Part shown: positions 1 to 8,525 of the stretch, in pieces | Numbering within the stretch: position 1 is the first letter of the stretch | Layout of the letters: every line of letters begins with the position of its first letter | Source of the DNA: a virus | Taxonomy: Duplodnaviria; Caudoviricetes | Length of the DNA: 30,235 nucleotides | Direction: 5' to 3' (one strand) | IMG/VR virus record: IMGVR_UViG_3300014208_000105 | Coordinates: 1-30,235 of that record | Made by a program: the position numbers and the translations under genes | The notes under the pieces: model-generated | What the model was told of the DNA's origin: nothing | The model's input: the letters and a program-made list of their open reading frames with translations, nothing else | Databases searched by the model: none

Positions 1-1152
1 GAGCTTTGCCCACCCCTCAATGATGAGCTTCATGGGCGGCAAAACGACATCGGTAAGGATGAACCCCAGGTCACCCATGACCGGAATGAGATCTTCCCCG
101 ATGGCGTTCTTCATGTTGAGGACGGTGGCAGTGAAACTTCGGAAACCATCCGCATCCGAATCGATCACACCGCCCATGTCTCGCAGTTCCTGAAGACCAG
201 CCGCGATGGTGGCGTTCGCCAGGAGCTGCACCGAATGCGCGTCCCGCATGCTCTCCGTAGCCTTTTTCACTGCCTCGGGAATCCGGATTCCAAGGTTGTC
301 CAGGATCAACGGGGAGGAACGGCCGATACCTGTAACGATGTCATCGAAGGCCTGGGCGGTATCCAGGCCAAAAAGCCGGGCCTTGTTCCTGGCGATGAGC
401 AGCAGGTTTCCCAGATCCTCTCCGTTCTTGGCCACCCCAAGCGTCATTGCCTTGGAGGATGAGGAGATCAGGCTCATATCACCAATGGTGTTCCCAGAAA
501 TTTTCTTGAGGGAAAAAATGATCGAATCGGCATCCTGCTTCTGGGTTTGAGCGAACTTTCTGAAGGCCTGCCGGGCTTCCTCCGTTTTGGCTGCTTGCTC
601 AGCAAAGGACCATACGGTGTCGATCCCCGCCTTCACCTTGGACAGAACTTCGAGGGTTTGGTTGATCTCTGTCGAAGCCGTTCTGAAACCCTTGACAAAG
701 TCCTTTTCAGCCGCAGTGGCCGCATTCAAGGATGTGACAAGTTCCGATTTGATTTTGGCGGCGGCTCCGGAAACGCTGGCATTGGTATAAGTGAAAGCCC
801 TGCCGATGGTTGTCGCCATCGTGGACAGTGCCCCCCCGGCAGTTTGGGCGGAGGCTTTGGAAGCATCGAGCTCCCTGCGAAACCAGTCGACCTCCTCCCG
901 GGCTCTTTTCGCCGCATCCCCAGCACTTTTCAGGGTCAAAACGAAGTTCCCGGAAATGACCGACCCGGCCTGGGCAGCGCCGCTTCCCATGGTCTTCATG
1001 GCCTGACCCGCCCCGGAAAGCCCGGCGTCCGCGCCTTCGGATGCGCCCCGCAAACCGGCCAGAGACGACCGAACGTCTTCCACGCCCTTGACGGCAGCGG
1101 TGCCGTCAGCGCGGATGACGAGGGTGATCTCGTTGCTTGGGCCTGGACTCAT
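1..1152 (-). CDS. Tail tape measure protein, N-terminal part (runs off the window)
   Basis: Not in ORF track. ATG at 1152 gives MSPGPSNEITLVIRADGTAAVKGV..., Ala/Gly-rich helical sequence with the TMP-like motif DIVTGIGRSSPLILDNLGI. Follows the tail chaperone genes. Confidence 0.9.
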   Translation of the reverse strand, partial: MSPGPSNEITLVIRADGTAAVKGVEDVRSSLAGLRGASEGADAGLSGAGQAMKTMGSGAAQAGSVISGNFVLTLKSAGDAAKRAREEVDWFRRELDASKASAQTAGGALSTMATTIGRAFTYTNASVSGAAAKIKSELVTSLNAATAAEKDFVKGFRTASTEINQTLEVLSKVKAGIDTVWSFAEQAAKTEEARQAFRKFAQTQKQDADSIIFSLKKISGNTIGDMSLISSSSKAMTLGVAKNGEDLGNLLLIARNKARLFGLDTAQAFDDIVTGIGRSSPLILDNLGIRIPEAVKKATESMRDAHSVQLLANATIAAGLQELRDMGGVIDSDADGFRSFTATVLNMKNAIGEDLIPVMGDLGFILTDVVLPPMKLIIEGWAKL

Positions 1153-1382
1153 CGTCGTTTTCTCGGTTTCATTCCGGTGAAGGAGGCAAGGGTCGCATCG
1201 ACGTTTGGCACCTCGATCACCTCATCAACGGCAGGCCAGAAATCGGCCAGATCCATACTCCAGGTGGCCCGGTGTTCCAGATGGAACGCCCGGGCCACCT
1301 TTTGGACGAAGGACCCAAGAGTTTTTTGGAAGGGCTCCCGGGCCCCCGGCCTCAGACGAGGGCCGGACCCCGGGCGGGATCG
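1149..1382 (-). CDS. Tail assembly chaperone -1 frameshift extension (gpGT-like C-terminal part)
   Basis: 77 open codons in the -1 frame after C CCA AAC (…LGSFVQKVARAFHLEHRATWSMDLADFW…). Stop overlaps the TMP ATG (ATGA). Confidence 0.8.
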   Translation of the reverse strand, partial: RSRPGSGPRLRPGAREPFQKTLGSFVQKVARAFHLEHRATWSMDLADFWPAVDEVIEVPNVDATLASFTGMKPRKRR

Positions 1383-1388
1383 TTTGGG
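1337..1388 (-). promoter_or_regulatory. Programmed -1 frameshift signal (CCCAAAC plus downstream hairpin)
   Basis: In-phase X XXY YYZ heptamer at 1388-1382. GC-rich hairpin CCCGGG..CCGGCCCTC-GTCT-GAGGCCGG..CCCGGG starts 7 nt downstream. Confidence 0.8.
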
Positions 1389-1753
1389 TGCAACTCCGGG
1401 GTCAACAATTCCTGAAGCCAGATCTGGGCAATGTGCCCTGCGTGGTTATGGTCGAAGGCGGCTTCCAGCTCCTCCCGGGAAAACTCCACCTTGTCCCGGT
1501 CGGGATTGAAGACGATCTCCAGCACGTCATAGCGGTCGACCCGGACGATCTCCAGAACTTCCTGGTTCGTGACCTTTTTGGTTTCCTCATCGAACTTCCG
1601 TCTCCGGGCTTCCTGCATGACCATGTAGCGCCGGTATTGATCGGGGGTCCAGCGGAGGAGGGTCTTCTTTTGGCCGACCGTCACGATGATGCGGTTGCCG
1701 GGGTAGACGCGATAGGGCAAGGGATGGGCTTGCAACAGGTCTTTGTCTTCCAT
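1352..1753 (-). CDS. Tail assembly chaperone (gpG-like)
   Basis: 133 aa between tail tube and tape measure genes; GAGGAG RBS; slippery heptamer near the 3' end. Confidence 0.8.
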   Translation of the reverse strand: MEDKDLLQAHPLPYRVYPGNRIIVTVGQKKTLLRWTPDQYRRYMVMQEARRRKFDEETKKVTNQEVLEIVRVDRYDVLEIVFNPDRDKVEFSREELEAAFDHNHAGHIAQIWLQELLTPELHPNDPARGPALV

Positions 1754-1764
1754 GTTCGGGCTCC

Positions 1765-3015
1765 TCAGCGGACCATGATTTCGATGTTGTCGTTCTGGCC
1801 GGGGACCGCGTGGATCTGCCCGGACAGCCCGTAGTGCAGGATGTTTTCCTTGTTCGCCAGGTCGTTGCCCAGCGTGCTCGCCCGGCGGATCCAGACCTGC
1901 ACGATGTTCCCGGCCACGCTGCCGGCCTGGGCGTTGAGAGGAAACTCGGTCCGGGCCCGCAGATTGGCCCAGAACGGGTGGGTGGCTTCGAGCTCAGCCT
2001 CGACCGTTGCCGACCAGCGCGGATCGCGCCGGCCATACCGGAGCCCCTTCAACCCATCTTCGGAATTCACGTCGGGCCGCTCGCTGAGCTTGTTTCCAGA
2101 GGTGAATCCCAGTTCCGGGATGACACCGGCTCCGAAGGAGCCGAACAGAACCCCGGCGCTCTCCACCACGGGCGGAATGAGCTTGTTCCAGTAATCGCCG
2201 GCGGGGGTGTCCACGTCGGTCAGGCCGCCAAAGCGGCCCCGAACGCTGAACTGGGCGCTGGCCATCTCGCCGGCAGGAAACGCCAGGCTGAAATCGGCAC
2301 GGGCCCCGTGGACCTTCACCAGGTGCTTGCCGAGGTAGTGGTAGAACGTCATGGTGGTTTTCGCATCGGCCGGTGCCCGGGTTGCGTAGGCCACACAGGG
2401 CAGGTAGCAGTGGACCAGCCAGGCATCGCCCAGCACCAGGTTTCCGGAGGCGAAGGTGAAGGTGATGGTCGCCCCTTCGTCGCCCAGGTTGATGGGGGTG
2501 GCAGTCGTGATGACGTTTCCCACGCTGTTCTGGGTGGTGTCGTCCAGGCAAACGACGCCACAGGTGGCGACACCGGACGCTCCGCCGAGGGTCACCGTGA
2601 CCAGGTAACGCCGCGGGGCCGGCCCCGTGAAGGTCCCCCCCGAGGTCACCGCAAGGGTCGAGGGGCCGCCGCTGTTGCCGAAGGCTCGCTCGGCCGCCCC
2701 AACGGTTTTGGCGGCAATCACCCGCTTGGTGTAACCGCAGATTTCCACCAGAGGGCCCCAGTCGGGCTCATTCCCGACCGTCCCGGCCCCGCGCAGATCG
2801 ACGGCGATGGCCAGGTCGACCAGCTCCCGGCCGATGAGCATCTTGGGCTCGGTCAGGCCGCTTTCCAGGGCCTTGCGCTGCAGCTCCTGGGGGCTGTATT
2901 TGGGCATCAGCTCGCCGCACAGAATGGCGTTGGCCGCCGGTGTCGGCGTGGGATCCACGTTCTCGGTGACCTCCAGCTCGCCAAGCAGCAGTTGGTTCAG
3001 TTCAAAATCGCTCAT
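1765..3015 (-). CDS. Major tail (tube) protein with internal beta-rich insertion
   Basis: 416 aa between the gp37-like gene and the chaperone. Beta-rich, with tube-like segments (DLRGAGTVGNEPDWGPLVEICG; VHGARADFSLAFPAGE). Confidence 0.8.
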   Translation of the reverse strand: MSDFELNQLLLGELEVTENVDPTPTPAANAILCGELMPKYSPQELQRKALESGLTEPKMLIGRELVDLAIAVDLRGAGTVGNEPDWGPLVEICGYTKRVIAAKTVGAAERAFGNSGGPSTLAVTSGGTFTGPAPRRYLVTVTLGGASGVATCGVVCLDDTTQNSVGNVITTATPINLGDEGATITFTFASGNLVLGDAWLVHCYLPCVAYATRAPADAKTTMTFYHYLGKHLVKVHGARADFSLAFPAGEMASAQFSVRGRFGGLTDVDTPAGDYWNKLIPPVVESAGVLFGSFGAGVIPELGFTSGNKLSERPDVNSEDGLKGLRYGRRDPRWSATVEAELEATHPFWANLRARTEFPLNAQAGSVAGNIVQVWIRRASTLGNDLANKENILHYGLSGQIHAVPGQNDNIEIMVR

Positions 3016-3023
3016 GGTGCCTC

Positions 3024-3461
3024 CTATTGTCGGGTTGGGACGGGCAGATAGGCCTTCGTCCGAAAGCCCAGGGTGTAGGCGATGACGCCGCCGTCGAGTT
3101 CCCCCAGGCGAACATCGATGCAGTCGAAAGGCCCGATCCCGGTCAGGCCGAAATCCTTGCCCTGGATCGCATCCCGGACAGCCTCAAACAGGGAATAGGC
3201 ATCCTTGGCGAGGGCCCTTTCCCCTTCGAGGTTCTGGGACATGACCACCACATCGAAATACCAGTCATAGACGGGGCGGGGCTGTGATTCGGTTCTGCGG
3301 GCGAAGAGGAAATAGACGAACGCGGCCGGGTAGCAGATTGGCGGGGGCGTATCATTCCGGCCGATGGAATCCACCTGGCCGAAAAGCTTGTTGCCCGACA
3401 GGTCGACGAGCGCCGTGACGGCGTCCATCATCTTGTCTTCCGTTGCCCCGGTCGTCGCCAT
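3024..3461 (-). CDS. Mu gp37-like tail terminator/completion protein
   Basis: 145 aa directly before the tube gene; YPAAFVYF, FDVVV, AYSLFEAVRDAIQG and YTLGFRT pattern. Confidence 0.75.
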   Translation of the reverse strand: MATTGATEDKMMDAVTALVDLSGNKLFGQVDSIGRNDTPPPICYPAAFVYFLFARRTESQPRPVYDWYFDVVVMSQNLEGERALAKDAYSLFEAVRDAIQGKDFGLTGIGPFDCIDVRLGELDGGVIAYTLGFRTKAYLPVPTRQ

Positions 3462-3575
3462 GTCAGAACGTCACTCCCACCCGCCACTCGGGTTTGTGAT
3501 TTCCCACGCCCAGATCCACAAACACGTTCCGGGCCCGCGCAGAAAGGGTCGCGCCTCTCGGCCCTGCCTCGATCC

Positions 3576-4022
3576 CTACCTGGGGCCGGGCAGGGCCGCG
3601 GTAGGGTCCGCGGGCACCGCCGGTCTGATGGGTAGACCGATCGCCTGACCGATCGCCTGGCCGGCCGGCAGCGCCGGCTGGTGATCCTGGGCCGCCAGGG
3701 TCTTGGCGATGAACTGGGCCTCCGCCTCGTGCTCCGGGGTCAGGTCGATCTTGTGCTTCATGGCCTCGTTGCGCAGTTCCAGCAAAAACTGGCCGGCCTT
3801 GTCCGTCTTCTTGATGACGTTCTTCTCGGCCAGGGCTTCGACGATGGTGAAGATCGCCGGGGCCTTGTCCGCGACGAAACCCCACCCGCGATCGATGGTG
3901 GAAACGATGGCCGCGCCCTTTTCGGTCTTGGCCATGAACGGCCGGGCCAGCTTGTAGACCTGGATCAACAGCACCGCAACCAACATCACGTTGGCGGGGG
4001 TCAGATAGTCGGTGAGATTCAT
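3576..4022 (-). CDS. Holin-like protein (LL-H-like: one N-terminal TM plus amphipathic helices)
   Basis: Start re-called at ATG 4022 (AAGGAGG RBS, ATGA overlap with the endolysin stop). TM segment VMLVAVLLIQV. Directly follows the endolysin. Confidence 0.6.
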   Translation of the reverse strand: MNLTDYLTPANVMLVAVLLIQVYKLARPFMAKTEKGAAIVSTIDRGWGFVADKAPAIFTIVEALAEKNVIKKTDKAGQFLLELRNEAMKHKIDLTPEHEAEAQFIAKTLAAQDHQPALPAGQAIGQAIGLPIRPAVPADPTAALPGPR

Positions 4023-4495
4023 GCGGCCAGGGCCTCCTTCAGGTTCTGCCAGGTCAGCGGGAGGTAAACCCCCGCGGGTGAGCACATCCACTGGGAATCA
4101 GGTTTGAAGCGCTCGCTCTTGGGCCGGATGTCGGCATGGAAGCCTGGACACCGCTTCCCTTTGGGTTTTCCGTCGAGCGTCCAGTAGGGATACAGCCCGA
4201 TGCCGTTGAACTCGTCGAACCGGGCCAGAGCGAAGAACAGGTCCATCAGGGAAAGGCATTCGACGTGCCCGTCAACGGCCATCCCGCGGTAGTGGTAGGA
4301 GCCATCGGTGTGGCCCCTGGTGTCGTAGGCGTTGTGGATCACGATGGGCAAACCCAGGAACGCCCGCAGAGCATCGAGGCCGTAGATCAGGTCCCGATGG
4401 ACCTTCCGCCAGTTCCCCCAGTTCTCGTCGGGAGTGAAATGGCGGACACCCTTCCAGTCGGCATCCGTCATGTATGGCCCGCGCACGTTGATCAT
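4019..4495 (-). CDS. Endolysin, peptidase M15 family Zn-metallopeptidase
   Basis: SxHxxGxAxD motif (SYHYRGMAVD), GIGLY and FHADIR. Start re-called at ATG 4495 (GGAG RBS). Confidence 0.85.
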   Translation of the reverse strand: MINVRGPYMTDADWKGVRHFTPDENWGNWRKVHRDLIYGLDALRAFLGLPIVIHNAYDTRGHTDGSYHYRGMAVDGHVECLSLMDLFFALARFDEFNGIGLYPYWTLDGKPKGKRCPGFHADIRPKSERFKPDSQWMCSPAGVYLPLTWQNLKEALAA

Positions 4496-4499
4496 AGCG

Positions 4500-4769
4500 T
4501 CACTCCCGGGCAATCGCCGCGTTGGCGTGCATGATCGTCTCTTCGAGGCGGGTCAGGGCGTTCGCCCGTTCCCGGCCGGCGGGGCAGTTGGTGCAGATCA
4601 GAATGGCCAGGATCAGGGCCTGGGCCCGAAGCTGCTGGAAGGACTCGGCAGCGCCGGGTTTGGGAGGGTGATAGGTGAAGCGGCGGGCCAGCTCGGCCTG
4701 AAGGTCGGCCGGAAGCTGGTCATAGCCGCGAGGCAGGGCAACCGGTTCGGATTGATCTTGTTTGGCCAT
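4500..4769 (-). CDS. Acb2/Tad1-like helical-hairpin protein (candidate signalling-nucleotide sponge)
   Basis: 89 aa from ATG 4769 (GAGGAGG RBS): RFTYHPPK...LR..A..LA..I...CP.GRERANALTRLEETIMHANAAIAR. Confidence 0.7.
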   Translation of the reverse strand: MAKQDQSEPVALPRGYDQLPADLQAELARRFTYHPPKPGAAESFQQLRAQALILAILICTNCPAGRERANALTRLEETIMHANAAIARE

Positions 4770-5238: not shown

Positions 5239-5700
5239 TCAGTCCGCGTTGAGAACGACAGAGATCGAGGCGGAATCGGCCCGGAAGTAGAGTTTCGGGG
5301 TCAGGGTCGCCAGGTCCCAGATTCGAAAGGCACCAGGGGCAATCTGGAAGGGGGACGACCCGGTCGGGACGTTGGAATACCCATAGTTCAGATAGGAACC
5401 ACCGGCAGGAACGCCGACCCACAAACGATGGGCCCCCGTGGGGATGGCCCCGGAAGTGGTGATCAGGACGGCGGCAGACGTCCCGATGACGACGGTCGGG
5501 GTCGCATAGGACAGAAACCCGTCGGTCGGGGCGTCCTGGGTGGGCATGGGGTATTGCTGCCCGGACCGAACTTCGGATCCAGTCCCGGTGATACCCTGCC
5601 GCCAGAAGGCGGGATCCGCGGCCATGGAGGACACGGCAACCGCCAGGAGGACGATCAGGAGAGCGGTGATTTTCTTCATGGTCTTCTTGATGGTCTTCAT
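5239..5700 (-). CDS. Hypothetical protein with Sec-type signal peptide
   Basis: GGAGGA RBS; basic N-terminus, hydrophobic core ITALLIVLLAVAV, SMA-A cleavage-like site; beta-rich mature region. Confidence 0.7.
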   Translation of the reverse strand: MKTIKKTMKKITALLIVLLAVAVSSMAADPAFWRQGITGTGSEVRSGQQYPMPTQDAPTDGFLSYATPTVVIGTSAAVLITTSGAIPTGAHRLWVGVPAGGSYLNYGYSNVPTGSSPFQIAPGAFRIWDLATLTPKLYFRADSASISVVLNAD

Positions 5701-8204: not shown

Positions 8205-8525
8205 ATGGGTGAGGCACAATGGGGAATTGAGATCATGAAGGTGGTCGGTTTTCCGGCGCTGCTGTTCTTCGTCTGGTATCTCTATCACCGCTCGGAAACC
8301 GAAAAGTGGAAGATCTATCTCGCCCAGGTCCAGGTGGAAAACAAACAGCAGTTCGAGTTGTTCAAGTCGGGAATGATTCAGCAGGAAAGAGCGCGTGAAC
8401 AGATGTTTCTGCTGCTGAAGGAAACCATCGAAACGGTCAGTTATCACTCGCAGATGTTGTCGCGGGTCGAACAGAAAATGGACACGAACCAATTTTGTCC
8501 CCTCGTGCGAAAGGAGCCCTCATGA
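8205..8525 (+). CDS. Single-TM coiled-coil membrane protein (BhlA/UviB-like holin-like)
   Basis: GAGGTG RBS; TM segment VVGFPALLFFVWYLY followed by a coiled coil; first gene of the packaging operon. Confidence 0.55.
   Translation: MGEAQWGIEIMKVVGFPALLFFVWYLYHRSETEKWKIYLAQVQVENKQQFELFKSGMIQQERAREQMFLLLKETIETVSYHSQMLSRVEQKMDTNQFCPLVRKEPS

Follow-up and report, generated by a model that had tools for sequence, protein, structure and literature searches.

A conserved, probable -1 frameshift site near the end of a phage holin-like gene and its predicted beta-strand extension

The question raised by this locus is whether a holin-like gene in a phage with Mu-like late genes simply ends at its own stop codon, or whether some ribosomes leave its frame and continue into a -1 reading frame that stays open up to the next gene. 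The window, by which we mean the whole stretch of DNA analysed here, is a record of a groundwater virus, 30,235 bases long and 61% complete according to CheckV, and the features of the locus are collected in Table 1. The -1 frame of the holin-like open reading frame is open from 3885 to 3463 and ends in ...VGVTF, with the TGA at 3465-3463 and the next ATG one base beyond it, at 3461. An earlier note on this DNA had placed the holin stop at 3576 and described the -1 frame as open on to 1 nt before the next ATG. When the coordinates were recomputed, both statements agreed, and the computed product lengths, 148 aa in the 0 frame and 140+46=186 aa in the -1 frame, bore out those expected from the note. 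The name gp37, which the note had given to the gene at 3024..3461, turned out to be positional only, and the PHROG matches of this gene are weak.

Table 1. Positions of the holin-like gene, the predicted recoding elements and the adjacent genes in the window.
Feature	Position	Strand	Remarks
Endolysin-like gene, M15 peptidase-like	4019..4513	-	phrog_894 E 0.003; stop overlaps holin ATG
LL-H-like holin gene	3576..4022	-	148 aa; TAG at 3578-3576
Predicted -1 slippery site G_GAC_CCT, core C_CCU	3603..3609	-	C_CCT conserved in tail-bearing ends
Putative stimulatory hairpin, 10-bp perfect base stem	3559..3598	-	fold score and compensatory changes in relatives
-1 frame extension, 46 codons + TGA	3463..3603	-	four predicted beta strands; Phe last
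Next gene, 145 aa	3024..3461	-	weak PHROG matches only; start 1 nt past -1 stop

A break of this kind could in principle reflect an assembly error or a recent indel that interrupted a single longer gene, an explanation for which the frame break itself, and nothing more, can be cited. The possibility of an indel at the shift region, raised in the earlier note, was checked in contigs (not raw reads) from two studies, and neither an indel nor a substitution was found. Contig X2, 596 bases long and from a second groundwater study, is identical to the window over 3291-3886, and contig X1, which is possibly the window's own source, shows no indel or substitution over 2900-4700. Since the identical contig comes from a second study, the frame break is not an assembly error. 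Moreover, the same break recurs in 22 distinct 3' ends, and the 21 representative homologues recovered in the full search are 115-153 aa long, none of them fused to the tail. The chance that an error or a recent indel created this locus is practically negligible. The open -1 frame as such says little, because in 11 of the 13 other window genes tested the -1 frame also remains open for more than 113 nt past the stop. As long open -1 frames are common in the GC-rich DNA of the window, the case rests on conservation among homologues.

For this comparison 44 loci were fetched, of which 41 matched the holin profile; L025, L034 and L035 gave no match to this profile and were left out as non-homologues. 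Together with the window, the 41 loci make 42 sequences with 24 distinct 3' ends, seven of which are close relatives, so that the number of independent lineages is nearer a dozen. The holins of these 24 ends are 19-44% identical to the window holin, in most holin homologues the stop is preceded at 6-10 residues by a short N/D-P motif, and the phage records compared are 30-98% complete. Searches with single sequences and the A4 scan of genomes gave no matches, neither the holin nor the tail was matched among 50,697 cultured phage records, and an in-frame holin-tail fusion was not found among longer proteins, with 8000 candidates scored, a negative result of little weight. The named carriers of homologues are Ca. 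Ozemobacteraceae and Riflebacteria, and the gene is carried by 8 of 87 genomes of the Riflebacteria phylum. Because the named homologues come from this phylum, the host of the window phage probably belongs to it as well. L033 and L041 are the same contig, which is titled Methylomirabilis yet was drawn with the Riflebacteria phylum set.

Comparison of the 3' ends identifies both a shift site and a -1 tail in 22 of 24, with C_CC(U/G) lying 2-17 codons before the stop. The other two ends, L013 and L044, have no tail and no site either, and their tail losses are separate on the holin tree. An in-frame C_CCT is present in 21 of the 22 tail-bearing ends, in neither of the two tail-less ends and at only 3 of 142 other Pro codons. 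Among the 21 C_CCT ends the site takes the form A_AAC_CCT in 16 and G_GAC_CCT in two, and T_TCC, C_CTC and C_AAC occur in one each; the site of L001, C_CCC_CCG, was picked by hand. A_AAC_CCU, found at 16 of 22 sites, is a formal X_XXZ_ZZN heptamer, and at 21 of 22 sites the base before the P-site codon is the same as the first base of that codon, as favoured by tandem slippage. A -1 frame stop lies 13 codons before the holin stop in L002 and L005, which confines the shift to the interval that holds the site. It has been reported that in E. coli six tetramers, C_CCU among them, shift at four or more times the background level when a stimulator is present (PMC4066793). The six active tetramers gave 0.26-5.6% of -1 shift, with C_CCU at the lower end and in need of a strong stimulator (PMC4066793), and the long form is therefore probably minor. 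The alternative site C_CCC_AGG_TAG, also suggested in the earlier note, was discarded because it lacks both conservation and a hairpin further on (z +0.9). Slippage during transcription was left out of consideration, the C run being just 3-4 long in most loci.

The window site G_GAC_CCT (3609-3603) is followed, 4 nt on, by a stem of CGGCCCTGCC (3598-3589) and GGCAGGGCCG (3568-3559) with the stop between its two arms, so that the heptamer, the 4-nt spacer and the 10-bp stem around the 0-frame stop are all located where the earlier note had put them. The hairpin folds with a z of -3.2, and 2 of 200 shuffles were equally good. When the 55 nt behind each site were folded, 13 of the 22 gave a z below -2, compared with 6 of 88 control windows. 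Among the close relatives, a stem of 9 pairs has 63 of 63 cells paired and includes 2 compensatory pairs, a count to be read with the relatedness of these sequences in mind, which inflates the shuffle control. Strong longer-range stems are found instead in L038 and L043, and hairpins are weak or ambiguous in L021, L026, L029 and L042. The register of the hairpin differs between homologue groups, and these register shifts rule out one consensus hairpin for all loci.

Judging from how its codons vary, the tail is also subject to selection for protein coding in the -1 frame. Among the seven close relatives, 29 of 36 third positions of the -1 frame vary versus 9 first and 6 second positions, and 254 synonymous versus 151 non-synonymous differences are counted with zero stops, as opposed to 9 and 21 stops in the other frames. 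The extensions of the 22 ends run for 32-71 codons. A tail profile made from 14 sequences recovered 7 of 8 distinct tails found later, at E 3e-6 or better; the sole tail that it missed was that of L026, and the best unrelated frame reached E 0.23. A conserved peptide of this kind might be made without any slip, if the tail were a separate small gene restarted at a GTG overlapping the holin stop. The -1 codon over the stop, which always encodes a hydrophobic residue, is indeed GTG in 12 and TTG in one of the 22 loci, but the remaining nine, the window among them, have GTA, ATA or CTG, and the near-identical L006 and L007 carry GTG and GTA, respectively. Three of the 22 extensions are without any ATG, GTG or TTG, and in the window the first such codon is codon 26 of 46. 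A restart would also leave the conserved C_CCU unexplained, and a free tail has no export signal. We consider a restarted gene very unlikely. Because the site and the tail are conserved, coding selection acts in the -1 frame, no start codon is constant and no in-frame fusion has been found, a programmed -1 shift that yields products of 148 and 186 aa is very likely on the evidence of the sequences. The frameshift proposed in the earlier note is in this way strongly supported, with the stop, the site and the -1 peptide conserved jointly and a hairpin in most loci.

Phage frameshifts of the -1 type have been described in genes for tail chaperones and in capsid or tail genes (PMC5009743). The present case is similar to lambda G/GT, where a late gene of the phage is read with a -1 slip shortly before its end, producing a minor, C-terminally extended product in a set ratio (PMC5009743). 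It differs from G/GT in that the gene appears to encode a membrane protein of a lysis cassette, the core of the site is C_CCU and the extension is a predicted amphipathic beta-meander. No holin extended by frameshifting was reported in the literature searched, that is, in titles and the starts of abstracts outside subscription journals and supplements, and the word 'holin' is absent from the examined text of PMC5009743. At 1149-1753 (-) the window has an apparent G/GT-type -1 frameshift of its own, at C_CCA_AAC with a hairpin over the stop, and the shift site and -1 peptide of this tail chaperone are conserved in L001.

The 148-aa protein has one N-terminal hydrophobic helix, a helical soluble part and a Pro-rich linker, and it is predicted to be all-helical. 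It gave no significant match in Pfam, PHROG or Foldseek, and the Pfam cut-off of PF09682 (Holin_LLH) was not reached, the window protein having 0 matches and one of 22 homologues matching at E 0.061. In the Atlas a Holin_LLH cluster matches it with a score of 0.92 and 192 of 256 features, and 15% of the members of this cluster carry PF09682; in Foldseek, ranks 3, 4 and 7 are holins (prob 0.95-0.97, E 0.14-0.22). By these language-model features and the Foldseek ranks, which lie below the family threshold of PF09682, the protein resembles Holin_LLH. It appears to share with Holin_LLH (holin superfamily 6) the N-terminal hydrophobic helix, the helical soluble part and the place after the endolysin. 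We know of no extended form of Holin_LLH.

The neighbourhood of the gene likewise points to a holin function, given its place beside endolysins. A reading of the sequences puts an endolysin-like gene directly upstream of the holin in at least 12 of the 22 tail-bearing loci, and endolysins or related enzymes are identified there by family match in the window, L001, L006, L013, L014, L023 and L044. These endolysin-like genes belong to different families: relatives of the window gene in L001 and L014 match Peptidase_M15_2, and L024 has a DUF5675 gene at the endolysin place. For L010, L021 and L022, an endolysin cannot be recognised directly upstream. In the Mu-like members the holin gene lies between the endolysin and a three-gene block ending in Mu gp27, and the gene after the tail has no DUF2730 match, so that the term 'gp25-like' for that gene is positional only. 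In Mu itself, the spanins gp23/23.1 occupy the place that corresponds to this holin gene (PMC9239132). Alternatively, the gene might not serve lysis at all, and both forms might be membrane proteins that act as an assembly anchor, in phage exclusion or as a part of the virion. The three loci without an adjacent endolysin would suit such a role, as would the lack of a significant family match, and no paper on LL-H topology or function was found in the literature. We nevertheless find this alternative quite unlikely, since endolysin-like genes of various families recur directly upstream and the Atlas and Foldseek both indicate Holin_LLH.

The tail gave no significant match to a Pfam, PHROG or PDB-sequence family. 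AlphaFold2 predicts four strands in it, at residues 8-14, 17-24, 27-34 and 39-44 (pLDDT 81.5), all of them short at 6-8 residues, and the monomer model is a four-strand meander with a best Z of 5.9 and no Foldseek match at E 0.001. Fold searches gave no diagnostic match, and an oligomer prediction with four copies of the tail scored 0.01 and was used neither for nor against any reading. Weak leads in the Atlas point to Phage_OMP (0.84) and to attacin and gloverin clusters (0.83-0.84); Phage_OMP itself (PF24653) has no match in the window at E 10 and none in 14 tails. In the four C-terminal strands and the aromatic end, the tail is reminiscent of the anchor of the trimeric autotransporters YadA, Hia and AtaA, from which it differs in apparently having no cleaved signal peptide and in showing no sequence similarity. 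The AtaA membrane domain superposes on the tail model with an rmsd of 1.3 over 43 residues and a Z of 5.0, tied with unrelated sheets. The consensus of the outer-membrane beta-signal is an aromatic last residue preceded by alternating hydrophobic residues, as in outer-membrane barrels. The C-terminus of the tail fits this consensus in both respects. F or W is the final residue of 18 of the 22 tails, 21 end in an aromatic or aliphatic residue, and the mean hydropathy is +1.7 at positions -1, -3, -5, -7 and -9 versus -2.2 at the even positions. R or K occurs at -3 in 7 of 22 tails, one tail ends in Pro, and the tail of L026 is just 32 aa long. The tails of L001 (3864-4081) and L021 (3334-3545), which are on separate branches, exceed the others in length by about 24 residues, and this seems to amount to one additional beta hairpin.

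A tail with four such predicted strands may well act on the outer membrane as a stand-in for a spanin, and an outer-membrane-breaking, spanin-replacing role is the best reading of the sequences, which we hold with about as much confidence as doubt. We are slightly more tentative about the complete scheme, in which one gene yields a holin and a minority -1 form whose beta tail joins the outer membrane once the holin lesion opens. According to this scheme, most ribosomes would stop at the TAG and make the 148-aa holin-like protein, and a few would slip back one base at C_CCU before the hairpin and make the 186-aa form. The slip rate would be low, a few percent at most by extrapolation from the E. 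coli data for C_CCU, and the slip would fix the ratio of holin to holin-plus-tail. The tail would start on the cytoplasmic side and could enter the periplasm only once the holin lesion has opened or the protein has flipped; its oligomers would then insert into the outer membrane, with or without BAM, and the inserted tails would tie or perforate the two membranes, with breakage of the outer membrane timed by the holin. As periplasmic entry would follow the lesion, this timing would be automatic. In favour of an outer-membrane target, besides the beta-signal-like end of the tail, Riflebacteria have been counted among the diderm phyla (bioRxiv 10.1101/2021.05.31.446380). Omp85, too, is present in 2 of 2 checked Riflebacteria genomes with the gene.

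Several observations count against an outer-membrane target, among them the short strands, the basic residues at -3 in 7 tails, the lack of a lipoprotein next to the tail-less holin of L044 and the incompleteness of the records. The charge distribution, for which the earlier note had warned of a cytoplasmic C-terminus, does point that way. In 20 of 22 holins the hydrophobic helix is followed by more K and R than precede it, which as a rule of thumb predicts an N-out/C-in orientation, and in 15 of 22 the N-terminus has no basic residues and looks like an N-out anchor. With this orientation the tail would begin in the cytoplasm, beyond the reach of BAM. The same prediction favours another explanation, namely that the slip is real but that the tail acts at the inner membrane or in the cytoplasm, either as a beta-sheet oligomer that enlarges or nucleates the lesion or as a timer resembling an antiholin, with the slip ratio as its setting. 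A slip that sets a ratio is also the logic of lambda G/GT (PMC5009743). The shortness of the strands is consistent with this explanation, and so is the net charge of the tails, +2 to +7, which suits anionic lipids. It accounts poorly, however, for the tails of L001 and L021, which are longer by one complete hairpin, for the coincidence of tail loss with a new lipoprotein gene in L013, and for C-termini that end in an aromatic or aliphatic residue in all tails but one and alternate strictly, like those of outer-membrane barrels. We regard an inner-membrane or cytoplasmic action as possible, if on the doubtful side.

The proposed attack on the outer membrane would make the long form a functional counterpart of the spanins, among them lambda Rz/Rz1, Mu gp23/23.1 and T1 gp11, in that it would join an inner-membrane to an outer-membrane anchor (PMC6139136, PMC9239132). 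Its polarity is opposite to that of T1 gp11 (PMC6139136, PMC9239132). Unlike spanins, neither the 148-aa nor the 186-aa product has a lipobox or a Cys, the outer anchor would consist of beta strands, and the soluble part is predicted to be cytoplasmic and not periplasmic. Another system comparable to the proposed one, disruptin gp28 of phiKT, is helical. It is a cationic peptide that replaces spanins and is encoded by a separate gene without recoding (bioRxiv 10.1101/515445). Also in favour of an outer-membrane target, a lipobox scan, which uses a crude pattern, detected no candidate lipoproteins close to the holin, either in the window or in six tail-bearing records, one of them 98% complete. 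An Rz1 profile, insensitive for this host group, matched 0 of 10 related records, and the spanins of this host group may be unrecognisable.

The two tail-less loci differ in what lies behind the holin. In L013 a 67-aa lipoprotein gene ending in FF (3432-3635, +) overlaps the stop of the holin, and this lipoprotein is a candidate replacement for the lost tail; L014, the sister of L013, carries a tail whose last residue is Pro. In L044 no lipoprotein follows the holin. An 83-aa soluble helical ORF without a family match is found there (1905-2156, +), which by eye resembles the soluble half of an LL-H holin.

It has been recognized that about 13% (91/677) of the surveyed phages of Gram-negative hosts have no identifiable spanin (PMC6139136). 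If the proposed role of the tail is true, it would be one more means of passing the outer membrane besides spanins and disruptins, possibly an undescribed way for phages to break that membrane, and a lysis device built by recoding would be a candidate explanation for phages of diderm hosts that seem 'spanin-less'. The holin-like gene with its shift site and tail is real and conserved, and is a variant built from known parts. A slip in it would bring lysis genes into phage frameshifting, next to the genes for tails and capsids, and would be a natural, conserved use of the C_CCU motif. A tail in the -1 frame would escape both gene callers and family searches.

Other genes of the window deserve a brief mention. 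Just upstream of the endolysin, 4500-4766 (-) encodes an Acb2/Tad1 hairpin protein (PF24729, E 6e-12), likely an anti-defence nucleotide sponge, which is missing at the same place in L001 and L014. A gene between the major capsid and gp36 genes has a signal-peptide-like N-terminus in the window (5239-5700, -), L001 (2122-2556) and L014 (1669-2103), which is odd for a gene of the head region; similar genes lie near the holin in L022 (2215-2673) and L024 (3973-4401), and none of these genes has a family match. On the strand opposite to the late genes, 8205-8525 (+) encodes a 106-aa membrane protein that matches phrog_23321 at E 1e-17.
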